DNA from: a virus
Taxonomy: Duplodnaviria > Heunggongvirae > Uroviricota > Caudoviricetes
Virus record (IMG/VR): IMGVR_UViG_2534682338_000012
Location: 1 to 54,083 of that record
Reading direction: 5' to 3' (one strand)
Length of the DNA stretch: 54,083 bases
Under the pieces are notes generated by a model that was not told where the DNA came from, did no database searches, and saw only the letters and a program-made list of their open reading frames with translations. Of the stretch, positions 9,587 through 52,384 are shown in pieces. The position numbers and the translations under genes were made by a program. Each line of letters starts with the position of its first letter. The first letter of the stretch is position 1.

Positions 9587-9588
9587 TC

Positions 9589-11439: not shown

Positions 11440-11459
11440 TCAAGAGGAGAAACGAAGTA

Positions 11460-12267: not shown

Positions 12268-12268
12268 G

Positions 12269-13264
12269 GTGACCGTGAGAGCACTACTGACCCCTGAAAT
12301 TGCCCCGCGTATGGGGATCGTATTGTTCAGACCAGGTTCAGAGCTGATGCCCCTGTTTATGCAGGGGCGTGTCCTGCTGGAGCCTGAGCCGGAACGTTAT
12401 TCATCTTTCGCCAGTGGTGCCGTTCCGGCGGCATCACAACCGCTGGCGGATGATCCTGCCGTTCGGGCCGTATTCCGCAATGAGGCAGTGATCCGTCGTG
12501 CTGGTGGCGTGGAATGTCTTGAAAGCTGGTTACTTCGTGAAAAGGGCTGCCAGTGGCCTCATTCCGACTGGCACAGCGAGAACATGACCACAATGCGACA
12601 CGCTCCGGGCGCAATCCGTCTGTGCTGGCACTGCGATAACCAGCTGCGCGATCAGTTCACGGAACGGCTGGAATCAATGGCAACGGATAACTGTGCCCGC
12701 TGGGTGTTGTCTGTTGTGCGTCGGGATCTCGGTTTTGATGACAGTCACGTTGTGACAATGCCGGAACTGTGCTGGTGGCTGGTTCGTAATGACCTGGCGG
12801 GTGCCTTGCCGGAAAGTGCAGCCCGTAAGGCACTGAGATTACCGAAGCCTGTTGTGCCGTCTGTCACCCGGGAAAGTGACCTTGTTCCTTCGGTTCCTGC
12901 CATCAGCATCATCCAGGATAAAGTGAAAAAGGTGCTGGCGCTGAAAGTGGATCCGGAGTCGCCGGAGTCTTTTATGTTACGCCCAAAACGTCGCCGCTGG
13001 GTTAACGAAAAGTACACGCGCTGGGTTAAGACACAGCCGTGTGCATGTTGTGGAAAGCCTGCTGATGATCCCCACCACCTGATAGGCCACGGTCAGAGGG
13101 GAATGGGTACAAAAGCGCATGACCTCTTTGTGTTGCCTTTGTGCAGAAAGCATCACGACGAGCTGCATGCGGATACCGTGGCATTTGAAGAGAAGTATGG
13201 CTCCCAGTTGGAGCTGATATTTCGTTTTATCGATCGTGCGCTGGCAATAGGCGTACTGGCGTAA
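12269..13264 (+). CDS. DUF968-family prophage protein (HNH-like C-terminus)
   Basis: 331 aa, GTG start; C-terminal CxxCG...HHL...GMGTKAHD...CRKHHDELH motif cluster. Confidence 0.55.
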   Translation: MTVRALLTPEIAPRMGIVLFRPGSELMPLFMQGRVLLEPEPERYSSFASGAVPAASQPLADDPAVRAVFRNEAVIRRAGGVECLESWLLREKGCQWPHSDWHSENMTTMRHAPGAIRLCWHCDNQLRDQFTERLESMATDNCARWVLSVVRRDLGFDDSHVVTMPELCWWLVRNDLAGALPESAARKALRLPKPVVPSVTRESDLVPSVPAISIIQDKVKKVLALKVDPESPESFMLRPKRRRWVNEKYTRWVKTQPCACCGKPADDPHHLIGHGQRGMGTKAHDLFVLPLCRKHHDELHADTVAFEEKYGSQLELIFRFIDRALAIGVLA

Positions 13265-14089: not shown

Positions 14090-14232
14090 TTTTCTCAACG
14101 ATGGGCTTTATGTATCTGCCGTTGATAACCTTCAAGAACTCGCCATTGAGCGGGTTTTTTATTGTGTAAAAACAGAATGACGGTATTAATTAGTAATATA
14201 ATTATTCGACCATACAACTAGGGGTCGAAAAA

Positions 14233-15018
14233 ATGTATGTTTTTGAGTTAATCAAGCCAGGCAGTAATCTTAAGTTTGAAAACAGAGAGTTAGAATGGAC
14301 GTTTAATAACTTATTATCCCATTTAGAAACTGCATTTTATGATGCTAATGTAGCATTAAATTTATTCGAACAGGAAAGAACTAAGAATAACAGTAAATTC
14401 GATAATATTTCTCAGACATGGCAAGCTGATGTACAGAAACGACAAGCACTGGAAATGCTGGTTCGTAAAGAGTTTGGTTATCAACCTTATGAATATTCAG
14501 AACAGGTTTTTTCAGAGGTCGAGCTACGTCTAAAAAGAGAAAAATGGAATAACGGTGAATATCCGTTGGCTCATCAACACAGATTGATCTTCTTACATGC
14601 AAAATCATTTCTCTACGCTTTGGATGCTATTGATAAATTTTTAAAGGTAATTTCAAAAGAAAATGGCGCGCCAGAGAACATTAAAAAATTGCATGAACAG
14701 CTTTCTAAAGACTTTCCGGATTTAAGAAAGGTAAGGAATTCAGCTCAACACATGGAAGACAGAGTTCGTGGGCTTGGTGCAGAGAAAGAACCAAAGCCAA
14801 TAAAACTCAAACCTGTAAATAATATTCATGTTGTTGCACCTCAGGGGGCATTGATGTTGAATAACTTATTCGGAACTAAATTTGGGTGCACTATGGCTGA
14901 TGGCTATTATGGTGAAGTAGATATTTCGACAGAGTCTTTGGCAAAGTTGCAAAATTTAATCCAAAAAGTTTTTAATTCCTTCAGTTGGGAAGGACCAAAG
15001 CAACACCTTCCCCGATAA
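14233..15018 (+). CDS. hypothetical moron protein (261 aa) at the Q-holin locus
   Basis: AT-rich ORF with own downstream terminator; no recognisable domain. Confidence 0.6.
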   Translation: MYVFELIKPGSNLKFENRELEWTFNNLLSHLETAFYDANVALNLFEQERTKNNSKFDNISQTWQADVQKRQALEMLVRKEFGYQPYEYSEQVFSEVELRLKREKWNNGEYPLAHQHRLIFLHAKSFLYALDAIDKFLKVISKENGAPENIKKLHEQLSKDFPDLRKVRNSAQHMEDRVRGLGAEKEPKPIKLKPVNNIHVVAPQGALMLNNLFGTKFGCTMADGYYGEVDISTESLAKLQNLIQKVFNSFSWEGPKQHLPR

Positions 15019-15035
15019 CATTTTCTTTTTTATTG

Positions 15036-15068
15036 AAAGCCGCCAAATAATTGGCGGCTTTTTTATTT
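15036..15068 (+). terminator. rho-independent terminator
   Basis: AAAGCCGCC-AAATAATT-GGCGGCTTT stem-loop followed by TTTTTATTT. Confidence 0.7.
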
Positions 15069-15437: not shown

Positions 15438-15914
15438 ATGCAGGTACTAAATTCCCAGCGTAAAGCTTTCCTTGATATGGTGGCATGGTCAGAAGGAACG
15501 GATAACGGGCGACAACCGACACGTAACCACGGTTATGACGTTATTGTTGGTGGTGAACTGTTTACTGATTACTCCGATCATCCTCGCAAACTTGTCACGC
15601 TAAACTCCAAACTCAAATCAACAGCCGCCGGACGTTACCAGCTTCTTTCACGTTGGTGGGATGCTTACCGTAAACAGCTTGGTTTGAAAGACTTCTCCCC
15701 CAAAAGCCAGGACGCTGTGGCATTGCAGCAGATTAAAGAACGTGGCGCTTTACCGATGATTGATCGTGGTGATATTCGTCAGGCTATCGACCGTTGCAGC
15801 AATATCTGGGCTTCGTTGCCGGGCGCTGGTTACGGTCAGTATGAACATAAAATTGGTGACCTGATTGCCAGGTTTAAAGAGGTTGGCGGGGTGGTAAATG
15901 AAGTTGAGCTATAA
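15438..15914 (+). CDS. R: endolysin, lambda R-like lytic transglycosylase
   Basis: 158 aa, near-identical to lambda R over most of its length (QRKAFLDM.AWSEGTDNGRQ.TRNHGYDVIVGGELFTDYSDHPRKLVTLN). Confidence 0.95.
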   Translation: MQVLNSQRKAFLDMVAWSEGTDNGRQPTRNHGYDVIVGGELFTDYSDHPRKLVTLNSKLKSTAAGRYQLLSRWWDAYRKQLGLKDFSPKSQDAVALQQIKERGALPMIDRGDIRQAIDRCSNIWASLPGAGYGQYEHKIGDLIARFKEVGGVVNEVEL

Positions 15915-16359
15915 GCTAGTTATCGCTGCTTTCTTCGTTACTATTATTGGTTCTTTCATCTGGTCAGCGAATCATTACCACAATCAAGCCATTGAATACA
16001 AAAAGCAGCGCGACGAAAACGCTATGGCATTACATTCGGCTATGGCGACGATCTCTGATATGCAGAAGCGTCAACGTGACGTAGCTGAACTTGACGCCAG
16101 ATACACAAAGGAGCTTGCTGATGCTAACACGACTCTCGAAAGTCTCCGTACTGATGTCTCTGCTGGTCGTAAGCGCTTGCAAATCGCCGCCACCTGTGCA
16201 AAGTCAACGACCGGAGCCAGCGGCATGGGCTATGGAGAAAGTCCAAGACTTACAGCTGATGCTGAACTCAATTATTACCGCCTCCGAAGTGGGATCGACA
16301 AGATAACTGCACAGGTTAACTACTTGCAGGAGTACATCAAGACACAGTGCCAGAAATGA
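15898..16359 (+). CDS. Rz: i-spanin Rz
   Basis: N-terminal TM helix, coiled-coil periplasmic domain, overlaps endolysin stop. Confidence 0.85.
   Translation: MKLSYKLVIAAFFVTIIGSFIWSANHYHNQAIEYKKQRDENAMALHSAMATISDMQKRQRDVAELDARYTKELADANTTLESLRTDVSAGRKRLQIAATCAKSTTGASGMGYGESPRLTADAELNYYRLRSGIDKITAQVNYLQEYIKTQCQK
16121..16306 (+). CDS. Rz1: o-spanin Rz1 (lipoprotein embedded in +1 frame of Rz)
   Basis: Signal peptide with lipobox LVVSAC and proline-rich mature region (KSPPPVQSQRPEPAAW). Confidence 0.7.
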   Translation: MLTRLSKVSVLMSLLVVSACKSPPPVQSQRPEPAAWAMEKVQDLQLMLNSIITASEVGSTR

Positions 16360-16431
16360 ATCTATAGATGACACTCCTCGTTCGTATAAGATAATGCTAA
16401 ATTACTATTAGCTTAATCACAGGAGACGGAC

Positions 16432-17295
16432 ATGGAAAGAGGTGTGGTATTTAGTGCATGCGAATTACTTAAAACCGAGGATGGAAAAGGCATCCGTACA
16501 GGTAAATGGATTAGTCAATTAGAAATAAACTATCTATGTCTTTATTGGGATAAACTAGTTTCACCCACTAATAATATTATACATACAGCATTAAATAACG
16601 AGGATGAATTAGAAAAATGTGGATTGCTAACCAGACCTGTATATAGACATCATGGTTGTTTTGATGGCCAATATATGGCTGATTTTTATGCTGAAACTCA
16701 TGCCAAAACAATAGATATACTTAGGCATGCGGATTCTTCTGTCGATTGGCGCATGCATTTTTTAAGTGACCAAATAAACTTGGTGCCTGAATTATCTAGA
16801 ACCTCAGAAGTGATACGTTTTGAGCTAGCAAATTTATTACCCGTTCCCACAGAAGATGTGCACCTACATGATATTCTTGATTTCAAGGAAAGAAGAAAAC
16901 CTGAATTAATCGCTTTACATGAATATCTTGATGAGCTTTACTTGGAAATAAAACGTTCTGGTGATATCAATCTTCAGAAAGCAAAAGCTCTTTCTAATCT
17001 TAAACAAGCAATAAAGGATATTGAACGCTTAAATTGTGAAGTGTGGAAAAGTCCAATAAAATTTAGCATCTCTACTTCCTTTGAGTTCGATTTTTCACAA
17101 ATATTTACTCTGGCGGGAACTGTTTTATCTATGTCAGTAGATTATCCTTATAATGTTATTGGAGGGGTAAGTAGTTTTGCTTATTTTTTGGGAGGATGCA
17201 TAAAAATAAAGCCACAATTTCAACAAGTGTTATCATTAGGTAATGATAAATTAGTTTACATAAGCAAAGGAAAATCGGAGGGTATTATTTCCTGA
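16432..17295 (+). CDS. hypothetical moron protein (287 aa) between lysis and packaging modules
   Basis: AGGAG RBS, AT-rich by eye, no recognisable domain. Confidence 0.6.
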   Translation: MERGVVFSACELLKTEDGKGIRTGKWISQLEINYLCLYWDKLVSPTNNIIHTALNNEDELEKCGLLTRPVYRHHGCFDGQYMADFYAETHAKTIDILRHADSSVDWRMHFLSDQINLVPELSRTSEVIRFELANLLPVPTEDVHLHDILDFKERRKPELIALHEYLDELYLEIKRSGDINLQKAKALSNLKQAIKDIERLNCEVWKSPIKFSISTSFEFDFSQIFTLAGTVLSMSVDYPYNVIGGVSSFAYFLGGCIKIKPQFQQVLSLGNDKLVYISKGKSEGIIS

Positions 17296-17371
17296 TTTTT
17301 GATTCTCATAATCAATGAATGTTTTTTGTGAATATACTTATTTTAACCATATAAATAATCAAGGTAATAAA

Positions 17372-17722
17372 GTGCCTCCTCGTATCCCGAAAGCCTGCCG
17401 TGCTCGAGGTTGCCGTAATACCACCACAGACCCGTCAGGCTACTGCGAAAGCCACAAAAGCGAAGGCTGGAAGCAATACAAGCCAGGCCAGTCCCGACAC
17501 CAGCGCGGTTATGGTGCGAAATGGGATTTTATCCGTGAACGTGTGCTCAAGCGTGACAAAGGCCTGTGTCAGTTGTGTTTGCGTGCCGGTGTGGTGCGCG
17601 AGGCGAAAACCGTTGACCACATCATCCCTAAAGCACATGGCGGCACTGATGCCGACAGTAATCTGCAGAGTCTGTGCTGGCCGTGTCATAAGGCGAAGAC
17701 GGCCCGTGAACGGTTGAAGTAA
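17372..17722 (+). CDS. HNH endonuclease (packaging-associated)
   Basis: CxxC...H-N-H motifs (CQLCLRAG...VDHIIPKAHGGTDADSNLQSLCWPCHKAK); start uncertain (GTG). Confidence 0.8.
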   Translation: MPPRIPKACRARGCRNTTTDPSGYCESHKSEGWKQYKPGQSRHQRGYGAKWDFIRERVLKRDKGLCQLCLRAGVVREAKTVDHIIPKAHGGTDADSNLQSLCWPCHKAKTARERLK

Positions 17723-37572: not shown

Positions 37573-38394
<822 letters not shown>

Positions 38395-38926: not shown

Positions 38927-40363
38927 ATGAATGCTAAAATTTCATGTCCAATTGATGGGTATATCATAACAGATTTCATAGGAGACGGAGGGAACGGAGA
39001 TGTGTATCTTGTAACTTCAAGTTCTGGCGAGGAAGCATTCGCTTTAAAAATACTAAGAAATGTACAAGAATCAACTTATAATAGATTCAAGGTAGAAGTT
39101 AATTTCTTGAAAGATAATAAAGTAGATGGGGTAATGCCTTTGCTTGATTTTTACCTTCCAGATAATGCAAAAAAAGAACAAGCTTGGTATCTTATGCCAT
39201 TGGCTGAAAGCTTTAAAGAAAGTGTAAAGCAAAAAGATCCATTATCAATCATCTCTGAATTCATTCATCTCACTCAAACCATTATAGAACTCCATGACCA
39301 AAACATATCTCACCGGGATATAAAGCCAGATAATCTTCTATATTTGAATGGCAGGATATTTTTAGCGGACTTTGGATTGGTAAAATATCCTGAAAGAATC
39401 GAATTAACACCCGATATGCGAGACGTTGGCGCAAAATTCACAATGGCCCCAGAAATGAGACGGATAGCAAATCGTGCTGATGGGCTCCCGGCAGACATTT
39501 ACTCTCTGGCAAAATCAGTATGGATGTCTCTGACTAAAGACTATCTTGGTTTTGATGGTCAGTACAGCACAAAATCTAATATCGGATTATCAAACTACAT
39601 AAAAGAACTATATCTACCGCCCTTAGATGACCTATTAGTGCGCGCAACAGATAACGATCCGTATCAGCGACCAACTGCTGCGGAGTTTAAGACAGAACTT
39701 GAAAATTGGATAAAAATTAATAATGATTTCATCCAGCGTAATTTAACTGAATGGTTCGAAATCCAAAACCTACTATTCCCATACAGCACACCGAATAGTG
39801 TAGAGTGGACAAATAATGATGACATAATAAACATACTCAATTTAATAGCTGGAAGGGAGTCTCTAAATCACATGTTTTATCCTTCCGGTGGGGGAAGCGA
39901 TTTGATTTATGTCGAACCAGCCTCAGAAAAAGGATTTATCGCGCTTATAGTCTGTGAACGATGCGCTGAAATTTTAAAGCCCAAAAAACTTTCATTTGAA
40001 TCATTTGGTCATGATCCCGAATGGAATTATTTTCGTCTTGAATGTGAAGTAATCGAACCAATGAAAATTTCGGGTCCCGTTACTAGTTCAACGATGGATG
40101 AATACATGGTTGAAATTACGCCTGGAAATTACATACCTCCAGATTGCTGGGAAATAAATGAGTATCAAGGTAAACCTCTACCTGAAACCGCTAGAATTGT
40201 CAGCAGGTATATAAAAGGTAGTTTTGTATTTTTCTGCAAGTCATCAACTTATAACAGAATAAGCCAGACGTATAATGCTTGGCAGAATGTGGGGGAAAAT
40301 GAATTCAGAAAGCTAATCGCAAAATTTGCTCAGTATGCTTCTGCCCGAAGAACCATTAAATAA
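38927..40363 (+). CDS. Hanks-type Ser/Thr protein kinase with C-terminal domain of unknown function
   Basis: Gly loop IGDGGNGDVY, catalytic Lys (AFALK), HRDIKPDNLL catalytic loop, DFG (LADFGL), APE (MAPEMRR). Confidence 0.8.
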   Translation: MNAKISCPIDGYIITDFIGDGGNGDVYLVTSSSGEEAFALKILRNVQESTYNRFKVEVNFLKDNKVDGVMPLLDFYLPDNAKKEQAWYLMPLAESFKESVKQKDPLSIISEFIHLTQTIIELHDQNISHRDIKPDNLLYLNGRIFLADFGLVKYPERIELTPDMRDVGAKFTMAPEMRRIANRADGLPADIYSLAKSVWMSLTKDYLGFDGQYSTKSNIGLSNYIKELYLPPLDDLLVRATDNDPYQRPTAAEFKTELENWIKINNDFIQRNLTEWFEIQNLLFPYSTPNSVEWTNNDDIINILNLIAGRESLNHMFYPSGGGSDLIYVEPASEKGFIALIVCERCAEILKPKKLSFESFGHDPEWNYFRLECEVIEPMKISGPVTSSTMDEYMVEITPGNYIPPDCWEINEYQGKPLPETARIVSRYIKGSFVFFCKSSTYNRISQTYNAWQNVGENEFRKLIAKFAQYASARRTIK

Positions 40364-41855: not shown

Positions 41856-42019
41856 TCACCTAGTTTTCCCAAGTCAACCCACATCAACAAAATCATTTAA
41901 AAACATATATATTACGTTATTTTCATACGTTTGAGGTCAACCCTTGTCTCTTGAAATCAACACGCGGTTGGGGGCACAATCAGGGGCATGTTCTGTTCGG
42001 TCTAGGAAATGTGCCCCCA

Positions 42020-43210
42020 ATGATGCTGAATGCCCGCAAGGTTGAAGCTGCGAAAGGAAAAGAGAAGAGCTACAAGCTGTTTGATGGAGGTGGCCTATAC
42101 CTTCAGGTCGAACCTAATGGCTCGCGTTACTGGCGTATGAAATACCGTTTTGCTGGTAAAGAGAAACGATTGTCCTTTGGTGTTTATCCAACAGTCACAC
42201 TTGCTGATGCCAGACAAAAACGAGAAGACGCGAAGAAACTACTCGCAGCAGGTGAAGATCCCGGCGAAGTCAAAAAAGCCAAAAAGCAGGCTTTAAATGC
42301 AGCGATTGAGACACTTAACCCATTCAGAGAAGTGGCGTTAGAGTGGCACAAAATGAAATCACCCAAATGGTCTGAGGGCTATGCTTCCGACATCATTGAG
42401 GCATTCGAGAAAGACATTTTCCCGCATATTGGGCACAGACCTATAGCTGATATTCAGCCCCTTGAACTGCTTGAAGTTCTGAGGTTGATAGAAGCTCGAG
42501 GCGCTATGGAGAAAGCGAAGAAAGTCCGTCAGCGATGCGGTGAAGTTTTTCGCTATGCCATCGTAACGGGTAGGGCAATCTACAATCCGGCACCGGATCT
42601 TGCCAGTGCGATGCAAGGACATGAAGCAGTCCACTATCCATTCCTCAAAGCCAACGAACTACCGGAGTTCTTTAATGCCCTTAATTCTTATTCAGGAAGT
42701 CCAATTGTATTGTTGGGGGCGCATTTACTTATCCTGACAGGTCTACGAACTGGAGAACTACGAGCAGGTGAGTGGCGAGAGGTGGATTTTGATAATGCGG
42801 TGTGGGAGATCCCAAAAGAACGTATGAAAATGCGTAGGAGCCATATTGTCCCGTTGTCAAAACAAGCATTATCCCATCTCAAAAGTTTGAAAGAACTAAC
42901 TGGGAACTACCCGCTGATGTTCCCTGGACGCAACGATCCTAGCAAATTTATGAGTGAAGCAAGCATTAATCAGGTGTTTAAACGTATTGGATATGCAGGG
43001 CGTGTTACGGGGCATGGTTTCAGGCATACGATGAGTACAATCCTACATGAGAAAGGATTTAACAGCGCTTGGATTGAAACCCAGCTTGCTCATTCGGACA
43101 AAAACTCTATTCGTGGAATTTATAACCATGCCCAATATCTCGAAGGGAGAAGAGAAATGATGCAATGGTATGCTAATTATTTATCTGAGCTAATTGGTAC
43201 TCATAAATGA
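42020..43210 (+). CDS. P4-type tyrosine integrase
   Basis: N-terminal LNARKVEAAKGKEKSYKLFDGGGLYLQV (DUF4102-like arm-binding domain), C-terminal HGFRHT...Y catalytic region; track start is TTG, ATG chosen. Confidence 0.85.
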   Translation: MMLNARKVEAAKGKEKSYKLFDGGGLYLQVEPNGSRYWRMKYRFAGKEKRLSFGVYPTVTLADARQKREDAKKLLAAGEDPGEVKKAKKQALNAAIETLNPFREVALEWHKMKSPKWSEGYASDIIEAFEKDIFPHIGHRPIADIQPLELLEVLRLIEARGAMEKAKKVRQRCGEVFRYAIVTGRAIYNPAPDLASAMQGHEAVHYPFLKANELPEFFNALNSYSGSPIVLLGAHLLILTGLRTGELRAGEWREVDFDNAVWEIPKERMKMRRSHIVPLSKQALSHLKSLKELTGNYPLMFPGRNDPSKFMSEASINQVFKRIGYAGRVTGHGFRHTMSTILHEKGFNSAWIETQLAHSDKNSIRGIYNHAQYLEGRREMMQWYANYLSELIGTHK

Positions 43211-44031
43211 ATATTTTAAAAATTAATAATACTGATTCTCTGCTCAGAGATTACTACCAGTTGGATGAAGCTTCAGAAAAAATTGGTTGTAGTGAAAAGG
43301 ATATACTCTGGTTTGCCAGAGAACGAGATGTAGAGCTATGCATGGAATTCCATGATGATGAGTATGATGTTTCATGTGGTTTGAAGATTGATGGTCAAAT
43401 GGATGAGTTCTTATCTAATCTGAAATATTTACCACGAGATAGAAATGGCAATATTATGTTGTCAGACTTAAGTTCTATAAGAATCCCTGATGAAGATAAT
43501 TTAATTGATAAAAATGGTTTTATTCGATGTTTCATATCCGGTTTATGGGCTGTTGATTATGAATATAAAGATCTGTTAGTTAAGCATGAGGGGCAACCGG
43601 ATTCTTGGCCTATTCATTTTCTACTGGCGGGTACGCCTAATATAAATTGTAAGGTAATTCTTTATGTAAATTATGATGAAAAAGAAAATTATTATCTTTT
43701 TGAGGTTTTGTGGATTACAAAGGTACAGATTCAAAAATTCATTGATATAGTCTTATGCGAACAAAAGCGGATAAAAAACGCCAATAAATATAAATCACAA
43801 TCTGAGGCGCAAAAACAAAAACATGCTGTTCCTCGAGCTGAAATACTCATGGCTATTATTTCGCTCTATCATCGTGATATGAGGCTAAGAAGAGAGAGTC
43901 CAGCAGCGATAGCTGATTATCTTTTTCAACATGCCAGTGAGTTCTGGCCTAAGACCGGAGAACCGCCTTTGAGCTATGATACTGTTGTTAGTTTGCTACG
44001 TAGTTGCATGAAAAACATTAAGTTTAACTAA
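43207..44031 (+). CDS. hypothetical protein (274 aa), AT-rich
   Basis: Start overlaps integrase stop (ATGA), no recognisable domain. Confidence 0.5.
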   Translation: MNILKINNTDSLLRDYYQLDEASEKIGCSEKDILWFARERDVELCMEFHDDEYDVSCGLKIDGQMDEFLSNLKYLPRDRNGNIMLSDLSSIRIPDEDNLIDKNGFIRCFISGLWAVDYEYKDLLVKHEGQPDSWPIHFLLAGTPNINCKVILYVNYDEKENYYLFEVLWITKVQIQKFIDIVLCEQKRIKNANKYKSQSEAQKQKHAVPRAEILMAIISLYHRDMRLRRESPAAIADYLFQHASEFWPKTGEPPLSYDTVVSLLRSCMKNIKFN

Positions 44032-44156
44032 ATATTAACAATTATTGTGGCTAATGATTTTGGATTTTTTTCATTAGTCACATTTTTCTCATTTATAACC
44101 TATGTTTTAATTTTCCGTGTTGAAGCCAATAGACTTAGATAAACGGAGAATGATGA

Positions 44157-44447
44157 ATGTTATCTAAACATGATAATACTACTTTGCAACGACCTTCAAT
44201 GGATTCTCTGATCGATATGAAGTTTATTACTTCCGATTGTTTATTAAGTGATAAATGGATTTATCGATTGATTTCTCTGAATCGCTTTCCAAAACCTATA
44301 AAAATAGGTCGGATGTCACGATGGCGCGCTGCTGATTATTATAAGTGGCGAGATGGGTTTGAAGAAAACTCAGGTCAACATTTTGAGGGAATGAGAAATA
44401 AGGCAAGAGCAATTAATAAAGGGAATAGATTATCACCTACTCCCTAA
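44157..44447 (+). CDS. AlpA-family phage regulatory protein
   Basis: C-terminal region resembles AlpA HTH (RLISLNRFPKPIKIGRMSRWRAADYYKW); true start may be internal (~44217). Confidence 0.55.
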   Translation: MLSKHDNTTLQRPSMDSLIDMKFITSDCLLSDKWIYRLISLNRFPKPIKIGRMSRWRAADYYKWRDGFEENSGQHFEGMRNKARAINKGNRLSPTP

Positions 44448-44479
44448 GCCTTAATTGATAGTTAGTAATATTTAACTGA

Positions 44480-44653
44480 TTAGCCTTTAGGGTCAATCCC
44501 GCGTGATTGGAGTTCTTTGCGTAAAATTCTTTTAATCCAAGTTGCCAACGCGCTATCTCCATCTTTGCGCATTTCGTTTTCGAGTTGCAACCTAAAATCG
44601 TCGGTAAGACGCATTTGGAATGGTGGAGAACGTTTCTCTTGTGGTGTTGACAT
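44480..44653 (-). CDS. small ribbon-helix-helix-like protein (57 aa), not in ORF track
   Basis: Minus-strand ORF MSTPQEKRSPPFQMRLTDDFRLQLENEMRKDGDSALATWIKRILRKELQ...; beta-strand/helix/helix pattern; two copies of CATGGTAATTACC palindrome at and upstream of start. Confidence 0.4.
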   Translation of the reverse strand: MSTPQEKRSPPFQMRLTDDFRLQLENEMRKDGDSALATWIKRILRKELQSRGIDPKG

Positions 44654-44784
44654 GGTAATTACCCTAGAATATGATGACTACATGGTAATTACCATTGTAA
44701 GTATAGTTCGCTTGTAAAAGCAATGCCCGATTGTGCGGGAACACAAATCGGGCATTTAACCAACCGTTATAAGAGGTAACGAAG

Positions 44785-44961
44785 ATGGCTAAACAGAAGT
44801 GTACCTGGTTATTTGCGGCGATCAACCGCAGTCAACGCAATGCCCGTCCTGTGATGTTAAGGATCACCGCAGATAACGAGCGGTCAGCGCGGCGCAGACT
44901 TGCCCCGGACTATGTACTGAGCTTTGCCGGGCGCATTCCCTGCGGAGGTGAACATGCGTAA
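44785..44961 (+). CDS. small protein (58 aa), possibly Icd-like
   Basis: AAGAGG RBS; MAKQKCTWLFAAINRSQRNARPVMLRITADNERSARRRL...; translationally coupled to next gene; family assignment from memory, low certainty. Confidence 0.35.
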   Translation: MAKQKCTWLFAAINRSQRNARPVMLRITADNERSARRRLAPDYVLSFAGRIPCGGEHA

Positions 44962-45313
44962 TTATCCGCACCCCGGCGAACGCTGGCAGCATGAACGTGG
45001 CTGGACGGTCACGATTATCCGATTAATAGAAGCCTCGCCCTCTGTGGCGCTGGTTAATCCTGAATTCAGCTGTGAAGTGCTGATACGTCATGACAGCGAC
45101 AACCAGCTTTCTTCCTGCCCTCTGGCATGGTTTGAACAGCGGTATACGCGCCTGTTTGATGTACCGCTCTTTAAGCCTGCACCAGCTCCTGCAGGCGGTA
45201 GTGGTTCCGGCCCGCTGACACTGCATCCGTCTGTGCTATTTATCCGCTGGCGGGAGCGTAGCATATGGCGTTCTGCTGAGCCTGACGACGGTCACTATTC
45301 AAAGTTTCTCTGA
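44954..45313 (+). CDS. hypothetical protein
   Basis: Start MRNYPHPGERW after GGAGGTG, overlapping upstream stop. Confidence 0.5.
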   Translation: MRNYPHPGERWQHERGWTVTIIRLIEASPSVALVNPEFSCEVLIRHDSDNQLSSCPLAWFEQRYTRLFDVPLFKPAPAPAGGSGSGPLTLHPSVLFIRWRERSIWRSAEPDDGHYSKFL

Positions 45314-45344
45314 CAAAATACCGCTGAAAACGGAGTAATCCACG

Positions 45345-45629
45345 ATGAATATTTCAAACGGGCACAACGGTGCTCAGGGCCACACTTTGCCTGAAAAACA
45401 CAATACCGGTGCTTTTGCCTATGGGTTGTCAGAGGACAGTTTCGGAAAGCTGACCCGCGCAAGAAATGCCTGCGACATGCTCCAGCTTCTCTTTTCTGAA
45501 TACCCGTCTCAGGCCGGAGCACTGGACGCTGGCTGTGCGCATGGTGTCGCCGCGCTGATGGAGTACCTGCTGGCAGATTTGACGGATATTGCACACAGTT
45601 GCGCACTGATTGAAGGAGGTGCCAGATGA
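45345..45629 (+). CDS. hypothetical protein
   Basis: 94-aa ORF in operon upstream of primase. Confidence 0.45.
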   Translation: MNISNGHNGAQGHTLPEKHNTGAFAYGLSEDSFGKLTRARNACDMLQLLFSEYPSQAGALDAGCAHGVAALMEYLLADLTDIAHSCALIEGGAR

Positions 45630-46009
45630 ACCAGCCGCAGGTTTCCATTTTCCCGGCAGAAATGACCACCGCGCTTTACCGGCGGGCTATTGCTTCAGCA
45701 TGGCGGCAGAAAATGCTGAACGAAACTGGCAGTGATCAGTATGGTCCGCACAGCCTGACGGTGGAGCGTATTGAAATGGCCATTGCGCTGCATATCGAGT
45801 GCGTACTGATTAACGAGTACGGCGAAGTGCAGGGCGCCGCTACCGCGCTGGCACTGCTGACTGACATGCTGGAGCCGTCACTGCTGACCGCGCCGCCGGT
45901 ACTGACCGCGCGCGGCTGTGAAGTGATGGCGGAGATGTACCGCACGCTTCCGGCGGCCTTTGATGACTTCTGCAGTACCGGTGTGACGTTGTATGAGGGG
46001 GAAGTATGA
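45626..46009 (+). CDS. hypothetical protein
   Basis: 127-aa ORF, stop-start overlap with neighbours. Confidence 0.45.
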   Translation: MNQPQVSIFPAEMTTALYRRAIASAWRQKMLNETGSDQYGPHSLTVERIEMAIALHIECVLINEYGEVQGAATALALLTDMLEPSLLTAPPVLTARGCEVMAEMYRTLPAAFDDFCSTGVTLYEGEV

Positions 46010-48678
46010 CAATACGGACGGTTACGCAGATTTCAGCCGCCGCACGGGGGAAATGGCCCGTTATTCTGCAGATGCTGCGTATTGATGTACCTGAAAACGG
46101 CAGGCACGGTCCCTGCCCGAAATGTGGGGGCAAGGATCGTTTTCGCCTTGATGACCTTGACGGGCGCGGGACGTGGATCTGCAGCCAGTGTGGCAATGGT
46201 GACGGTCTGGATCTGGTTAAGCTCGTAACCGGTTACAGCGTCAGAAAGGCTGCGCAGGAGGTGGCGCAGGTGCTTAATGTGCCGGATGTGCAGGAACTGC
46301 CTGTTAAGCCTGCCAGACAAAAAGCCCCTAAACGAGACATGGGTCTTACCGTGGCGGCGCTGATGAAAGAGAGCCACACGGGAGAAAGCGCCTATCTGAC
46401 AGGAAAAGGGTTCGCCGGATACCCGGCCTCTCTGACCGGAAGCGTGCAGCATATCAGCGGTAAGGATTTTCCTGCCGGTTCCCTGCTGTTACCACTCACG
46501 ACCAACACCGGAGCCGTGACCGGTGCACAGCTTATCGCCCCGACGGGTGAAAAAAGCATACTGCCCGGCAGCACGATGAAAGGCGCGTTTGTGTCGCTCA
46601 GCCCGTTACCGTCTGAACCACCGGTACAGGTGGTGATTACCGAAGGTTACGCTACGGCGCTGACGGTAAGCCAGCTCACTGCCGGATGCGTAGTGGCTGC
46701 CATATCTGCGGGCAACCTGCCCAATGTGGCGCAGTCGCTGCGGGCACGCTGGCCTGAGGTAAAAATTATCATCGCCGGTGATAACGATTTTCAGGACGGG
46801 GGTGAGAATCCCGGCAGAGCCTTTGCTGAACGGGCGGCAAAAGCTGTTGGCGGCTGGATGACGCTGCCACCAGGAGAGATTAAGGCTGACTGGAATGACT
46901 TTCATCGGGAGCACGGTATTACCCGTGCCCGTGAAGCCTTTCGCAACGGTCTGGTACTGTGCGGGGAAGGCCGCACGCAACTGCCGCACGGGTTCCGTCT
47001 TACCCAGGAATATCTCTGGTATGAAAAGCAGGTACAGCGCAACGGTGAGACGGAGATCCAGAACGTCAAAATATGCAGCCCGCTGCGCGTGACGGCAATT
47101 ACCTGCGATGCCGATGGCGGTAACTTCGGACGACTGCTGGAATGGGAAGATACGTGGGGTGAGTGTCGCCGCTGGGCGATGCCAATGGAAATGCTGAGCG
47201 GCAGTGGTGAGGAACTGCGCCGGGTTCTGCTGGTTAACGGGCTGTCTTATATCAGCACCACCGGTGAGGCACGCGCACGCCTGATGGAATATATCTCACT
47301 GTGTAAACCGGAACGCCGCGTGACCTGCGTCAGTCGTACTGGCTGGCATGGTCAGGTTTACGTCCTGCAGGATGAGGTCAGCGGTGAAGGTGCAGAGGGT
47401 GTCATTCTCCAGACCACTTCCGTGCAGGGGCGTGATTTCCGCGTGTCGGGCACAACAGAGGAATGGCGGGAGCATGTATCCCGCTACTGTACCGGCAACT
47501 CCCGCGTGGCATTTGCTGTCAGCCTGGCCTTTGCTGCACCACTGTTACGGCTGGTTGGTATGGACGGCGGCGGCTACCACCTCAAAGGGGAATCGACAGA
47601 CGGTAAGACCACCACCATGAAAGCGGCAACCTCCGTCTGCGGCGGGCCTGACTACTGGCAGACATGGCGGGCCACCGGCAACGCGCTGGAGGGATGCGCC
47701 AGCCGCCGTAACGATGCCGCCATGATGCTTGATGAGATCCGGGAAGTTGACGGACGCGAGGCAGGCAATATCGCCTACATGCTGGCAAACGGTCAGGGCA
47801 AGGGCCGTGCCGGTACGGACGGTGAGCTGCGTACCCGTAAGCAGTGGCGCCTGTTGTTCTTTTCAACTGGCGAGTTGTCTCTGACCGAACATGCGGCAAA
47901 GGCCGGTGAGCGTACTTTTGCCGGGATGGAAGTCAGGATGATCCAGATCCCCAGCGATTCCGGGAAGTTTGGCGTTTTTGAGGAGCTGCACGGCTTCGAC
48001 AGCGGCAAGGCTCTGGCAGAGCATCTTGAATGGGCCACGTCCTGCTACTACGGTTCGCCGTTCCGGGAGTGGCTGAAAGCACTGACCGCTGATCTTAACG
48101 GACTAACGGCACAGGCAAAATCGCTGATGAAGGAATATGCTGCCGCCCTGACTCCGAAAGATGCAGGCAATCAGGTGGGCCGGGCTGTGAACCGCTTTGC
48201 ACTGGTGGCGATGGCAGGTGAACTGGCAACCCGTCTGGGTATCACCGGCTGGCCTGAGGGTGAAGCACTGCGGGCAACCCGCGTCTGCCTGAACGCATGG
48301 CTGAAAGATCGCGGGCACACCGCCAATCAGGAAGATATCGCCGCACTGGAGCAGGTTCGCAGTTTCTTTACCGCGAATCAGTACAGCCGCTTTGCAGACT
48401 GGTATGACGAGCGCAACCGCCCCGGCAATATGGTGGGCTGGCGCAGGGTGGAGAAAGGCAGTACCGCGCAGGGCACGGAAGCTGTCACTACGTTCTATGT
48501 CATGCCGTCCGGCTGGAAAGAAATCTGCAGGGGATTTGACCCGCGCAAGGTGGCGCGTCTGTGCGCAGATCGTGGATACCTGCTGCCCTCCACTGATGGC
48601 AAACTCCAGACAACCATTCGCCCGCCAGAGATGAATCCCCGCAGGCTCTATGTCTTCAACAGCGAGGTGCCGGGTTAA
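46006..48678 (+). CDS. P4 alpha-like primase-helicase
   Basis: 890 aa; N-terminal zinc-binding CPKCGG...CSQCGNGDG, TOPRIM-like acidic region, central P-loop (GESTDGKT) helicase region. Confidence 0.85.
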   Translation: MTIRTVTQISAAARGKWPVILQMLRIDVPENGRHGPCPKCGGKDRFRLDDLDGRGTWICSQCGNGDGLDLVKLVTGYSVRKAAQEVAQVLNVPDVQELPVKPARQKAPKRDMGLTVAALMKESHTGESAYLTGKGFAGYPASLTGSVQHISGKDFPAGSLLLPLTTNTGAVTGAQLIAPTGEKSILPGSTMKGAFVSLSPLPSEPPVQVVITEGYATALTVSQLTAGCVVAAISAGNLPNVAQSLRARWPEVKIIIAGDNDFQDGGENPGRAFAERAAKAVGGWMTLPPGEIKADWNDFHREHGITRAREAFRNGLVLCGEGRTQLPHGFRLTQEYLWYEKQVQRNGETEIQNVKICSPLRVTAITCDADGGNFGRLLEWEDTWGECRRWAMPMEMLSGSGEELRRVLLVNGLSYISTTGEARARLMEYISLCKPERRVTCVSRTGWHGQVYVLQDEVSGEGAEGVILQTTSVQGRDFRVSGTTEEWREHVSRYCTGNSRVAFAVSLAFAAPLLRLVGMDGGGYHLKGESTDGKTTTMKAATSVCGGPDYWQTWRATGNALEGCASRRNDAAMMLDEIREVDGREAGNIAYMLANGQGKGRAGTDGELRTRKQWRLLFFSTGELSLTEHAAKAGERTFAGMEVRMIQIPSDSGKFGVFEELHGFDSGKALAEHLEWATSCYYGSPFREWLKALTADLNGLTAQAKSLMKEYAAALTPKDAGNQVGRAVNRFALVAMAGELATRLGITGWPEGEALRATRVCLNAWLKDRGHTANQEDIAALEQVRSFFTANQYSRFADWYDERNRPGNMVGWRRVEKGSTAQGTEAVTTFYVMPSGWKEICRGFDPRKVARLCADRGYLLPSTDGKLQTTIRPPEMNPRRLYVFNSEVPG

Positions 48679-48699
48679 GGCTTTGCGTGAGTCTTATTT

Positions 48700-48900
48700 A
48701 TTAAGGGTAACAGGTGAAACAGGTGGAACAACCGTATTTTACAGGGCTGAATCTGTTCCACCTTCTGAAATAGTGAGGTGGAACAGATGTAACGCCAGCC
48801 AATCCGCTGTTCCACCTTGTTACCCGCGATGTTCCACCGGTGCAGTGTATATAAATGCTTTATAAAACAAATGGGTAACACATGTTTCACCTGTTACACC
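48700..48900. repeat. ori/crr-like iteron cluster
   Basis: At least five copies of GGTGGAACA/TGTTCCACC in both orientations plus inverted GTAACAGGTGAAAC...GTTTCACCTGTTAC. Confidence 0.5.
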
Positions 48901-49078
48901 GCATCAGGGACATAAAGCAGACTGAAACAGAGGGCATTTTTATCTGGCTGGCTTTCATAGCCACGTCTGAATAACCGCAAGCGCCCGTTGTACCAGCCAC
49001 CACACACTGAGCACCGATAGTGTGCTTGTGTCAGCCACGACACAATTGACGTAACGAACCAACCCGACAGGAGAAGTC

Positions 49079-49822
49079 ATGAACAACACCGCAGTGAATA
49101 ACAACCTTTCCACTTTTCCGGCTGTAACGCAGCGGGCACTGGAAACCATGAACACAGCCAGAAACGCATGGCTTGAAGCACGTCGTCAGCAGAAAGCGGC
49201 AGCGGATAATATTGCGACAATCCGCCAGCGTCGCGCTGAAATGGAAGCCACGACGAACACACTGAATGAGGAGTGGCGCACGCTGTTTCGTGAAAGTCAG
49301 GGCGTGGTCTCAAAGGAAATGAAAAAACTGCGCACGGAAATTGCGCTGGGACGAGAAACTCTTGAGGATTTTGATGAGCTGCTGGAGGCTCAGGAAAGCG
49401 AAAATGCACTTTTGCCGCAGAAAGCTGCGGAATTAGCCGGAAAGTATATCCACGCGCATAACATCCTTGTGGATATTCGCGCAAAACAAATCTGGGAAGA
49501 TTTTATGCAGTCGCATGGAAAAGCGCTTATTCAGACGCTGAGCCTGCTTAAATCCACAATGGGCCGGGAAGCCAGTGCCGTTGTGGGTGTGGTGAATTCA
49601 GTTAATGACCCGGACACAGTGCTGAAAGACTTTATTCATAAACATATCACCAGACCGGCTCTGGCTAACGATGCGATGCCTGAGCAGGACCCGGTGTTTA
49701 AACTGGCGGGAGTTGCCCCGGATTATGCGGCGCGTCTGGATTTCAGTAATCAACTCTCTCCGGCAGCTATGCATAAAATTAAGGTTCGTCAGGAACTTGC
49801 TGAGAAGGAGAAAGCAGTATGA
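49079..49822 (+). CDS. possible Sid-like capsid size determination protein
   Basis: 247 aa, alpha-helical/coiled-coil character, immediately upstream of Psu; size close to P4 Sid. Confidence 0.35.
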   Translation: MNNTAVNNNLSTFPAVTQRALETMNTARNAWLEARRQQKAAADNIATIRQRRAEMEATTNTLNEEWRTLFRESQGVVSKEMKKLRTEIALGRETLEDFDELLEAQESENALLPQKAAELAGKYIHAHNILVDIRAKQIWEDFMQSHGKALIQTLSLLKSTMGREASAVVGVVNSVNDPDTVLKDFIHKHITRPALANDAMPEQDPVFKLAGVAPDYAARLDFSNQLSPAAMHKIKVRQELAEKEKAV

Positions 49823-50370
49823 CGGCCCGAGGCACGCCTGACCAGGCACTTACCAGTTTTCGGAATGCCCGTATTCTGTGGGCCGGACATAATGAGAGCC
49901 GAAAAGCCGTTGAACAACAGATAACATCTCTCCTCGCTGCCACAGAAAAACCAGCAGATTATGCCCGACAGCTCGAATTACTGCGGGAACGTCTGGATGT
50001 GCTGAAATGGCAAATTAACTGTGCTGCGCGCGAATGCATTTACTCGCAGCATTTACTGATGGAGGCCTGCACAGAAGCCGCTCTCAGCAATTTTATGCAG
50101 GCGAATGGGGCAGCCCTGACATCTGCACTGGCTCCGTTCCTGAAGGGGCGCGGAGGGGTTGACGTTGCGTCCCGTATATTACGCAGTGCTCTGGTTCGCC
50201 AGCTGGCAATAACACCGCCTGAAATTGCCGGGGATTATCGTGAGATCCTGGATGAATCCGGTTTGATGCCTGACCCCGGGATGATTCGTGATTGCCAGGG
50301 GTCTTACACCCCGGCACAACATCTGCGTTTTCAGCAACGCCTGAATGACATTAACGATATACAGGAGTGA
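49819..50370 (+). CDS. psu: polarity suppression protein Psu
   Basis: 183 aa; blocks recalled from P4 Psu (LKWQINCAAR, FMQANGAALTSALAPFL, YTPAQHLRF). Confidence 0.65.
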   Translation: MTARGTPDQALTSFRNARILWAGHNESRKAVEQQITSLLAATEKPADYARQLELLRERLDVLKWQINCAARECIYSQHLLMEACTEAALSNFMQANGAALTSALAPFLKGRGGVDVASRILRSALVRQLAITPPEIAGDYREILDESGLMPDPGMIRDCQGSYTPAQHLRFQQRLNDINDIQE

Positions 50371-50375
50371 TATTA

Positions 50376-50648
50376 ATGGCACTTAAATGTCCGGAATGCG
50401 GTACAGTTGCACACGCCAGAACAGCAGCCTATGAAGCTCCGTCAGTTAAACGCTCGTGGTATCAGTGCCAGAATCTGGAATGTTCCTGCACATTTACGGC
50501 ACTGGAGAGTGTGGATAAGATAATCATGAAACCCCGGCGCAATGAACAGCTATCAGACAAAGCACAATCCCCGGAAAAACAACAGCAAACGCTCAATCGC
50601 TATGGCTCCGCGTCAAAACTGTCAAGCCGTCAGCAGATTCCTGTCTGA
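50376..50648 (+). CDS. Ogr/Delta-family zinc-finger late activator
   Basis: CPECG...AHARTAAYEAPSVKRSWYQCQNLECSCTF matches Ogr C2C2 motif. Confidence 0.8.
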   Translation: MALKCPECGTVAHARTAAYEAPSVKRSWYQCQNLECSCTFTALESVDKIIMKPRRNEQLSDKAQSPEKQQQTLNRYGSASKLSSRQQIPV

Positions 50649-51177
50649 TTAGAAAAAAACGCCCACGTAATCCTGGTCGAGTACCGGGATTTTTAACACC
50701 TTTTCCCTGGCTGGCCTGAGAGCGCATGAGTGCATGTCTATGGCGCATGAAAATGCATGAGCCTTATGCACCTTTTTTGAGGCGAAAACCTTTGTGTGGT
50801 GGTATCTGAGACGATTTATGGCATGCATGAAAACCAGTCTGTTAAGCGAAGCGGGCAGGCGTGCGGGGCTGCCCGCGATAGCACTGAAATCAACAGGTAA
50901 AACTATTTTTTATTAGTAGTGTAAACTGGGAGCGAACGGACTCTGTCATGCTGTATCATCCTGTAATGATCAATCTCACTGGTGTCTGTATAGATGTCAA
51001 CCAGTTTCGACGGCTGTGTCTAACTTAAAATTAGAGCTTAATCAAGTTTTTCCTCGAGAATACTTTTAAAAGACAATGAGTTATGAGAAAGTGGAGGCTG
51101 TCACGTTGGTCATATGTAACACTCCACGTAATCTTAATCGCTTTGTAAATGTTGAAGTTAATTAATAGGGAAAACTG

Positions 51178-52137
51178 ATGCTAACCAGGGCTGAAAATAT
51201 AAGAAAAATCACAAGCTATTTAGCTATTCTCTCAAGAGAGGTTGAGATTAGTGCCTCCCTCAATCTTTTGGATATCAACGTTCAAGCGGAATCTTTTTAT
51301 AGAGATTTCTTAAACTTATGTTATGGATATAATTTAAGAAATACCAATAGTGAAGAGCAAAACTACCAAGCAATAGATCTTGCTGATGAAGATCGGAAGA
51401 TTGCTATACAAGTAACTTCAACTTCTGACTTGGGAAAAATTAAGAATACAGTTGATGGATTTATAAAAAGTAAGCAATATGAAAAATATGATAGACTAAT
51501 TGTACTGAATATAACTGAAAAGAAAAAGCACAGATTGAAAGAGTATGGAATAGCCGGGTGCTATGTAATTAATATCAAAGATGATGTATGGGATTATAAG
51601 GATATAATTAGAAAGATAAACGATTTGAATGATTGTGATATATCAACAATATGCTCATTTTTGGAACGTAATATTAATACTAAAGCTGCTGATAAACCGC
51701 CGAAAGAAGTCACAACTATGTTTGCGATGATTGAATTATTGAGTGATGATGCTCACCCATTGGCAGGAAATGGATTTATTGAAGAGCCTAATCCTGAAAA
51801 TAAAATATATAAAAGATTTTCAGATTATTCAGAGCGGTTGATTGGCTTATATACTGGGTTAGCTCCATTATATAGTGGGATATTTAAGTCAATAAAAGAA
51901 CAGAGCGATATTGGTATCGTAAGGTACCAAAAGATGAGTTTGTATTTAGAGTCATTTAGTGATAAGGTCTTAAGAAGCCATGGTGGAGATCCTATCTTGG
52001 CGCTTAATTATTTAAAAGAATATTTTTCTAAACAACTGAGCCAGAGAAATGTAGATTACGATGAAACAGCTATCAAATTTTTCTTAATTGAGAATTTAAT
52101 TGCATGTAACGTCTTTCCTAATTCGGAGATTCTTTGA
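51178..52137 (+). CDS. hypothetical cargo protein (319 aa), candidate effector/specificity component
   Basis: AT-rich ORF, first gene of tightly coupled three-ORF cassette after P4-like late genes. Confidence 0.55.
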   Translation: MLTRAENIRKITSYLAILSREVEISASLNLLDINVQAESFYRDFLNLCYGYNLRNTNSEEQNYQAIDLADEDRKIAIQVTSTSDLGKIKNTVDGFIKSKQYEKYDRLIVLNITEKKKHRLKEYGIAGCYVINIKDDVWDYKDIIRKINDLNDCDISTICSFLERNINTKAADKPPKEVTTMFAMIELLSDDAHPLAGNGFIEEPNPENKIYKRFSDYSERLIGLYTGLAPLYSGIFKSIKEQSDIGIVRYQKMSLYLESFSDKVLRSHGGDPILALNYLKEYFSKQLSQRNVDYDETAIKFFLIENLIACNVFPNSEIL

Positions 52138-52384
52138 TGTTAAGTTTTTTTTCGAAAGATGAGGATTTGACAAAATCCCCTCCTGTTGTAGGGGCTAAAA
52201 TTCTTAATTTATTTGACGAAACAAAAAAGAAAAAATTAGTATTTTCGATTTAGCAAAAGAATTAAAGAAAAACAACTCTCTAGGAGTGCGTGCAATTTAT
52301 TTTGGAATGGTCTTTCTTTATACTCTTGATCTTATCGATTTCGATGAGCCATATGTGATAAATAAAAATGTTAAGAATAAATAA
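52137..52384 (+). pseudogene. small middle ORF (~80 aa if contiguous) interrupted by frameshift in A-rich tract
   Basis: ATG overlaps upstream stop (TGATG); frame 0 gives 38 aa then stop; adjacent frame continues ...ISIFDLAKELKKNNSLGVRAIYFGMVFLYTLDLIDFDEPYVINKNVKNK to overlap the next gene. Confidence 0.35.

Follow-up and report, generated by a model that had tools for sequence, protein, structure and literature searches.

The window, that is, the whole stretch of DNA analysed here, comprises 54,083 nucleotides of the IMG/VR virus record IMGVR_UViG_2534682338_000012 (Caudoviricetes) and carries, at the junction between the lysis cassette and the packaging module of an SfV/HK97-like Escherichia coli prophage, a gene of the DUF6236 family. 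The features of the junction are listed in Table 1. On the left, the gene is preceded by a lambda-family holin, a GH104/24-type endolysin and the spanin pair Rz/Rz1; on the right, an HNH endonuclease is the first gene of the packaging module and is followed by the P27-family small terminase subunit (TerS) and the large subunit (TerL). The location between Rz/Rz1 and the HNH-terminase module, as given in the initial annotation, was confirmed by Pfam searches and by translation. The start of the HNH gene is most likely the GTG at 17372 rather than the in-frame ATG at 17315, since the former is the start called by PGAP in the carrier genomes and homology of the SfV type resumes at 17373. The open reading frame between the two modules runs from an ATG to a TGA over 287 codons and is a real, intact gene; the probability of an open frame of this length arising by chance at the local base composition is about 4e-11, and none of the remaining five frames over the gene exceeds 79 codons. 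The AT-richness of the frame and its AGGAG ribosome binding site, both pointed out in the initial annotation, were found again, with a GC content of 0.338 and a third-position GC content (GC3) of 0.226 for the gene, against 0.47–0.56 and 0.43–0.65, respectively, for the neighbouring Rz, HNH, R and TerL genes (flanks about 0.55). The AT-rich composition extends over a block that includes, besides the gene, 70 bp on its upstream and 77 bp on its downstream side, and that has no counterpart in the closest sequenced phages. BLAST places the left boundary of this block at the end of the HK97-type Rz homology (position ~16361) and the right boundary at the resumption of the SfV-type HNH homology (17372/17373).

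Table 1. Features at the lysis-packaging junction of the window.
Feature	Position	Strand	Basis and remarks
Rz i-spanin, HK97-like allele	15898..16359	+	Pfam Phage_lysis, E = 7.6e-39; end of the lysis cassette
Rz1 o-spanin, embedded in Rz	16091..16306	+	Lipobox LVVSAC, from translation
AT-rich block unique to the cargo gene	16362..17372	.	BLAST breakpoints, composition
Candidate sigma-70 promoter, ATGACA-16 nt-GATAAT	16368..16395	+	10/12 consensus matches
Shine-Dalgarno sequence, AGGAG	16421..16425	+	6 nt 5' of the ATG; direct sequence reading
DUF6236-family gene	16432..17295	+	Intact ORF, 287 aa; Pfam, PHROG, RefSeq identity
HNH endonuclease, 116 aa	17372..17722	+	Pfam HNH, E = 2.7e-16; PGAP in identical arrangement

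The product had initially been described as lacking any recognisable domain, a statement that did not hold. The protein matches Pfam PF19749 (DUF6236) with an E-value of 1.3e-31 and a score of 110.5 bits (gathering cut-off, 26.2), and phrog_23128 with an E-value of 7.2e-144, residues 1–285 being aligned on profile positions 1–288 of 288; moreover, it is 100% identical to RefSeq entry WP_000439452.1 ('DUF6236 family protein'). DUF6236 is a family without assigned function, and the exact protein is thus already annotated in RefSeq. The Pfam match covers residues 24–232 on model positions 74–277 of 324, so that the enterobacterial prophage branch has a shorter or diverged N-terminus, with a C-terminal part lying outside the model. 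PF19749 was also matched by all 49 of the aligned homologues, whose secondary Pfam matches (SLATT_fungal, Bacteriocin_IIc and others) had E-values of 0.01 or higher and were too weak for use. When 1.84 billion cluster representatives were searched with a profile, 1,719 clusters (50% identity) were recovered at E ≤ 1e-3, nearly all of them single-domain proteins of about 285 aa in which the full length is kept. No domain fusion was seen in 271 proteins from a second profile search, which carried PF19749 alone, or in the top 150 cluster representatives. Across 221 sequences with identities down to about 21%, 25 positions were conserved at 85% or more, including the motifs MxRG (1–4), LYWD (37–40), LPxP (136–139) and FKxxR (151–155), together with P45, G64, W106, E158, D167, Y170, D178 and Y276. 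In a codon comparison with the Klebsiella, Enterobacter and Morganella homologues, pN was found to be 0.33–0.39, against a saturated pS of 0.71–0.78, and these values indicate that the family is under purifying selection.

The status of the gene as cargo was evident from the comparison with related phages. In vB_EcoM-720R4, SfIV and SfV, the closest sequenced phages, both flanks match the window while the gene span does not, and Rz1 is joined directly to HNH, with a spacing of 26 bp in SfV. Other relatives hold unrelated genes in the same slot, namely a hypothetical protein of 168 aa in 689R6, two tiny ORFs in 23CRST007, an antisense ClpP-like protease with a hypothetical protein in LD91-1, and an antisense hypothetical protein of 124 aa in ET490. 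The slot between Rz and HNH is therefore a cargo hotspot, and the proposal of moron-type cargo in a variable position was borne out. In a set of 5,426 complete E. coli genomes, 1,219 contained the HNH-TerS module (1,100 at a coverage of at least 80%) and 32 the DUF6236 gene, so that about 97% of the E. coli prophages that have this packaging module are without the gene. With these few carriers against some 1,100–1,219 genomes that have the packaging module, the gene is not a conserved part of lysis or packaging present in all relatives, which is the finding that the initial annotation had named as contrary to its view. The order Rz-DUF6236-HNH was shared by 32 of the 32 carriers at an identity of at least 98.4%, and this uniformity indicates a single acquisition, after which the gene spread along with the prophage. 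Taken as a whole, the comparison shows the gene to be an autonomous, horizontally acquired single-gene cargo (moron), located where the lysis and packaging modules meet in an SfV/HK97-like E. coli prophage whose terminase is of the P27 type.

Cargo of this kind could be a selfish or decaying passenger, either a toxin-like or addiction element or a hitch-hiker that brings no benefit and persists at a recombination-permissive junction. The variety of unrelated inserts taken by the slot, the IS elements inserted beside the gene in several carriers and the circulation of shortened versions of 110 aa (21 contigs) and 124 aa (5 contigs) are in agreement with such a passenger, and the near-identity of the E. 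coli copies is consistent with one recent spread. Nevertheless, this explanation is considered improbable, because the purifying selection is strong and spans a deep divergence, because the conserved positions and the full length are retained across the family as described above, and because no antitoxin-like partner gene was found.

The signals for expression were also evaluated. The candidate sigma-70 promoter upstream of the gene is the best match within 13.9–18.0 kb, although it is a consensus match only and such sites are fewer in the region than in shuffled sequence, and scans of the sequence ahead of the homologues from Klebsiella, Enterobacter and Morganella revealed no equivalent promoter. 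Between the end of the gene and the HNH start (17296–17371) no terminator-like site was found. From the organisation of lambdoid late operons, we infer that the Q-dependent late transcript includes the gene, which would hence be transcribed late in lytic growth in any case. In comparison with classical lambdoid morons (lambda bor, lom and the HK97 gp15 type), the gene shares the presence or absence between the same flanking genes, the AT-rich composition and the strong ribosome binding site of its own; it has a candidate promoter, which is putative, and it differs in that no terminator follows it.

A late-expressed lytic accessory was also considered, which would be of help to the phage in certain hosts, for example through the tuning of lysis or of late host physiology, through counter-defence or through an exclusion of competitors restricted to lytic growth, and which would have no action in the lysogen. 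The gene is co-oriented within the late operon, at the lysis-packaging junction, in every lambdoid context seen, and both the lack of a terminator between the gene and HNH/terminase and the lack of a consistent promoter of its own in the homologous cassettes are in favour of such a role. On the other hand, the same packaging module does without the gene in the great majority of E. coli prophages, the Klebsiella and Morganella cassettes have their own downstream terminator, which is typical of independently transcribed morons, and other copies lie beside integrases, at prophage edges, in non-phage islands or alone in chromosomes. Given these copies outside lysis-packaging contexts, no partner from lysis or packaging can be required for the function. 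A late lytic accessory is regarded as unlikely.

The contexts of the homologues are diverse. Homologues with identities of 33–52% directly follow the lysis cassette, and precede HNH/terminase or head genes, in prophages of Klebsiella, Enterobacter (two lineages) and Morganella, the holins and endolysins of which belong to families unrelated to those of the window, so that at least four unrelated lysis cassettes are involved. Elsewhere, the homologue is found in Klebsiella phage Mulock, where it separates the integrase/attP from the tail fibre, in Vibrio fluvialis, where it directly follows the integrase of a P2-like prophage at the prophage edge, at the end of a prophage record in Vibrio cyclitrophicus and within an integrase-bearing element in Aquisalimonas. 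In Teredinibacter it is placed between transposases and adjoins a KAP NTPase and an AAA_15/AAA_21 + DUF4435 pair, which has a PARIS-like domain architecture, in a locus resembling a defence island. The homologues were AT-richer than their own flanks in 8 of the 8 other hosts examined. No partner gene recurred in the homologue loci examined, from which it follows that the protein acts alone.

In a survey of the wider family (30 loci analysed out of 37 species-representative ones, with 283 neighbouring ORFs), the neighbours were mostly transport, metabolic and regulatory genes, with few integrase or transposase markers. Isolated defence matches were limited to one each of Type IIG R-M, PD-Lambda-1, MzaA and PDC-S15, and enrichment in defence islands was not clear from the raw counts in these 30 loci. 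The distant homologues are thus mostly ordinary chromosomal genes, and the wider family has this appearance in marine bacteria. In three species of Psychrobacter, the gene is syntenic, between photolyase/DUF3429 on one side and NnrS/Rrf2 on the other, and this copy is vertically inherited. In three species of Pseudoalteromonas, a unit of about 967 bp, composed of the gene with about 40 bp of preceding and 77 bp of following sequence and with ends reading GTTA...GCGTTA, is common to all at 89% identity within unrelated flanks. Its boundaries are suggestive of an integron cassette, and no attC array was found around these copies by a crude attC scan.

The structure of the protein was predicted with two AlphaFold2 models, built from 49 sequences (pLDDT 75.5, pTM 0.76) and 129 sequences (pLDDT 79.8, pTM 0.80), respectively. 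Both displayed an N-terminal Rossmann-like alpha/beta domain (residues ~1–140), followed by three long helices (~145–204) and by C-terminal strands (210–218 and 248–282) around a segment of low confidence (229–246, pLDDT < 50). Among the 221 homologues, the C-terminal segment 219–262 is variable in sequence and conserved in composition, with 40% G/A/S/T against a background of 25% and 10% charged residues against 24%. The median of the maximum Kyte-Doolittle mean over 19 residues was 1.51 for the homologues, 34% of the 221 reaching 1.6 or more, and the value for the window protein was 1.25, below the usual transmembrane threshold of 1.6. Foldseek against the PDB gave a best E-value of 0.015 with a TM-score of about 0.2 and no likeness to the whole protein, the BFVD structure search returned nothing, and the best match of the sequence-profile search against the PDB (E = 0.38) was noise; the weak fold matches of the N-terminal domain were generic Rossmann-like nucleotide binders. 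The models predict a cytoplasmic three-part protein with a fold that matches nothing solved, and the profile and structure searches proposed at the outset succeeded in the first part, by assigning DUF6236 and phrog_23128, and not in the second, where no solved fold was like the whole protein. No nuclease, kinase, ATPase or canonical transmembrane effector domain was detected in the 287-aa protein. A HEPN nuclease was also considered and rejected, since the gap between R155 and H163 is seven residues, compared with Rx4-6H, no HEPN Pfam match was obtained, and H163, with a conservation of only 72%, gives way to R in the consensus of the distant members.

The position after Rz had suggested an analogy with the bor-type morons. 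The bor gene of phage lambda sits just after Rz and encodes a protein of about 97 aa. Apart from the position, the analogy could draw on the residues F-S-A-C at positions 7–10, which are superficially similar to a lipobox. An outer-membrane lipoprotein with a role in serum resistance or virulence is nonetheless very unlikely, its probability being close to nil. The protein has no Lambda_Bor or lipoprotein Pfam match, and its length of 287 aa is well beyond that of Bor; the hydrophobic run ahead of Cys10 has only about four residues, which is insufficient for a signal peptide; Cys10 is not conserved, the homologues having R, P, V or G at this position; and the predicted protein is globular and cytoplasmic, with alpha/beta and helical parts, whereas Bor and Lom are small envelope proteins.

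A cytoplasmic protein with a Rossmann-like domain and a ligand-binding or enzymatic activity, taken by phages from a chromosomal family and conferring a benefit on the lysogen under stress or in metabolism, would be a factor of host physiology (lysogenic conversion) with no part in phage conflict. The solitary placement of most distant members among metabolic, transport and regulatory genes and the synteny in Psychrobacter beside photolyase, DUF3429, NnrS and Rrf2 point in this direction, as do the weak fold similarities, all of which are to nucleotide-binding Rossmann-like enzymes, and the conserved polar and aromatic residues, which suggest a binding pocket. Such a factor is given a low probability.

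Since the initial annotation had raised the possibility of exclusion, the relation of the family to phage defence was assessed in databases and in the literature. No family was matched in PADLOC-DB v2.0.0 at E ≤ 1 (5,027 models), which sets the protein apart from the catalogued defence proteins, and no match was obtained in NCBIfam. DUF6236, PF19749 and WP_000439452 are not mentioned in the paper texts searched, but they do appear in the supplementary tables of the DefensePredictor study (DeWeirdt et al., Science 2026; PMC13092281). In Table S10 of that study, the cluster WP_000439452.1 is predicted to be defensive (predicted_defensive TRUE), with log-odds of about 7.5 on average (standard deviation 1.06, minimum 6.16, maximum 9.30), and neither HHblits nor Foldseek is recorded there as relating it to any known defence protein (PMC13092281). 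A homologue, WP_097421955.1 from E. coli (289 aa, id '6236', log-odds 8.56), was among the randomly chosen candidates of Table S6; the MG1655 construct (pCV1-6236) included the native promoter region of this homologue, which was scored as not defensive (defensive = FALSE) against 24 phages, including lambda (PMC13092281). Validation was achieved for 42 of 94 candidates, and DUF6236 is neither in the 42 nor among the five newly validated DUFs (PMC13092281). Thus, in relation to the novel candidates of DefensePredictor, the exact cluster is listed and yet stands outside the 42 validated systems. According to the authors, negative results may stem from the phage panel, the expression or the boundaries chosen (PMC13092281). 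The idea of an exclusion moron consequently came out divided, a machine-learning screen predicting defence and the tested homologue proving non-defensive (PMC13092281). The negative assay also agrees with a host-physiology factor, and a late lytic accessory would explain why the homologue failed to protect when expressed alone.

Further evidence on defence came from the same prophage. A neighbouring AT-rich cargo gene at 14233..15018 (cluster WP_000289222.1) is also predicted to be defensive, with log-odds of 10.06 (PMC13092281), and the other cargo slot carries a PD-T4-3 homologue (E = 1e-128) together with a PD-T4-6/Stk2-like kinase. With PD-T4-3 and PD-T4-6 (Vassallo et al. 2022), BstA and GiPD474, the DUF6236 gene has in common that it is a single gene, located in a prophage cargo slot and of sporadic occurrence. 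GiPD474, the Gifsy defence protein, was examined as a possible relative and found to be an ATPase-domain protein, unrelated to the one described here.

The best explanation, held tentatively as plausible although short of probable, is that the gene encodes a stand-alone cytoplasmic protein of anti-phage defence or superinfection exclusion that benefits the lysogen. This reading is based on the recurrence of the family in phage cargo slots, its AT-richness and sporadic spread, the machine-learning prediction and the presence of validated defence genes in the other slot, while doubt arises from the negative test of the homologue, the lack of defence homology and the ordinary chromosomal contexts of the distant members. 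In such a protein, the N-terminal Rossmann-like and helical domains, which carry the invariant residues W39, D40, W106, P137, P139, K152, Y170, D178 and Y276, would bind a ligand or a phage component, and the hydrophobic C-terminal hairpin would abort infection by acting as effector or through oligomerisation, perhaps at the membrane. Expression in the lysogen might be driven by the candidate sigma-70 promoter. The assignment of sensor and effector parts is speculative, as the fold gives no mechanistic match. A more far-reaching proposal, which we regard as doubtful, is that DUF6236 constitutes a new class of single-protein defence or exclusion systems, with a fold absent from the PDB and a place in the lysis-packaging hotspot of many enterobacterial prophages, in which a Rossmann-like sensor would trigger the hydrophobic C-terminal hairpin and so abort infection, with a specificity (such as for certain temperate phages or a product made late by the phage) that the panel of 24 phages used on one homologue would have missed.

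The protein is already present in RefSeq and is listed as a candidate in a published supplement (PMC13092281), and the present finding adds context rather than a discovery. If the protein is not defensive, the case would be a caution that a place among prophage cargo, a high AT content and a high machine-learning defence score are no proof of function, given that the homologue failed a direct test and that the wider family resembles ordinary chromosomal genes in marine bacteria. If the protein does act in defence or exclusion, it would represent a further single-gene immune module, novel in structure, and would mark the Rz-to-terminase junction of lambdoid prophages with P27-type terminases as a defence hotspot worth mining, since at least five different cargoes occupy this slot among close relatives.

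Upstream of the DUF6236 gene in the window, Rz contains a mosaic breakpoint (15982/15983). Homology with the SfV-type phages, close relatives that join Rz1 directly to HNH, ends there at 15982, and from that point on the 3' portion of Rz/Rz1 matches the HK97-like allele. On the other side of the gene, an in-frame ATG at 17315, within the AT-rich spacer, would extend the HNH frame upstream; the PGAP annotation, like the homology, begins at GTG 17372. In the Enterobacter hormaechei prophages L009, L010 and L012, the region after the lysis cassette has grown to about 5 kb (8900-13100), with DUF6236 followed by several genes without clear function and then by the HNH-terminase module; the post-lysis position is therefore a hotspot able to take multi-gene cargo. 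IS elements adjoin the DUF6236 gene in several of the E. coli carriers, and shortened proteins of 110 aa (21 contigs) and 124 aa (5 contigs) were also found, which together suggests that the carrier prophages are partly decaying.

Homologues were also found outside lambdoid slots. In three species of Pseudoalteromonas, sharing was limited to the DUF6236 gene and its immediate surroundings, about 40 bp before it and 77 bp after it (89% identity), and the flanks were unrelated. The shared unit runs from GTTA|TAAA to ...GCGTTA, the latter preceded by an element beginning TATAACAAG; as sequences, these ends are reminiscent of the attC sites of chromosomal integrons. No attC array was detected in a crude scan. 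The gene is syntenic in three Psychrobacter species (L040, L041 and L046), with 75-92% nucleotide identity, photolyase/DUF3429 on one side and NnrS/Rrf2 genes on the other, and here it belongs to the chromosome and is inherited vertically, not carried as mobile cargo. The neighbourhood of the homologue in Teredinibacter turnerae (L021:5936-15021) is defence-island-like: DDE and IS66 transposases flank the homologue, which adjoins a 1,085-aa KAP NTPase and an AAA_15/AAA_21 ATPase and DUF4435 pair, which has the domain architecture of PARIS. A 172-aa unannotated ORF lies 36 bp downstream in the same locus.

The window holds a second AT-rich cargo gene, with antiterminator Q on one side and the holin on the other, the position of stx in Stx phages. 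Its protein matched phrog_5322 over the full length, and Pfam and PADLOC searches gave no match. Its cluster, WP_000289222.1, is a predicted novel defence gene with a mean log-odds of 10.06 in the machine-learning screen DefensePredictor (Table S10, PMC13092281). Among relatives, this gene is far commoner than the DUF6236 gene.

Directly past the tail-fibre assembly gene, an AT-rich island holds a PD-T4-3 homologue and a kinase matching defence models, and the distal cargo slot of the prophage is therefore occupied by known defence genes. Further on, the region 41951..54083 looks like a P4-type satellite bearing a defence hotspot, with a second integrase and a P4-like primase followed downstream by a very AT-rich stretch (GC about 0.30). 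SMEK and DUF2326 proteins, both encoded in this region, are included among the validated systems of DefensePredictor Table S6 (PMC13092281).

Cargo genes, mobile elements and shared units in the window and in related loci
Feature	Location	Strand	Remarks
Second AT-rich cargo gene	14233..15018	+	261 aa, GC 0.36
Terminator-like hairpins either side of this gene	14134-14159 and 15035-15062		
PD-T4-3 homologue	37573..38349	-	GIY-YIG domain, PADLOC E=1.3e-128
Ser/Thr protein kinase	38927..40363	+	478 aa; models matched: PD-T4-6, Stk2, mad6 (lowest E 6e-25)
Second integrase	41951..43210		
P4-like primase	46006..48678		Zn-ribbon, Toprim and DUF927
SMEK-domain protein	51178..52137		Within the GC ~0.30 region
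AAA_23/DUF2326 protein	52368..54083		PADLOC PDC-M68B, E=1.4e-48; ORF reaches window end
ISEc33	ECONIH5, L001:4425-5456		Between endolysin and Rz
IS3-family element	ECE313 (H85)		Adjoins DUF6236 gene
IS5	PEC41 (H99)		Adjoins DUF6236 gene
Genes after DUF6236, E. hormaechei	L009, L010, L012		485-aa ORF; Phage_Tail_Tip-like ORF; HNH_3/AP2 proteins
Shared DUF6236 unit, Pseudoalteromonas	L037:7963-8929; L039:7963-8926; L038:445-1408		Three species
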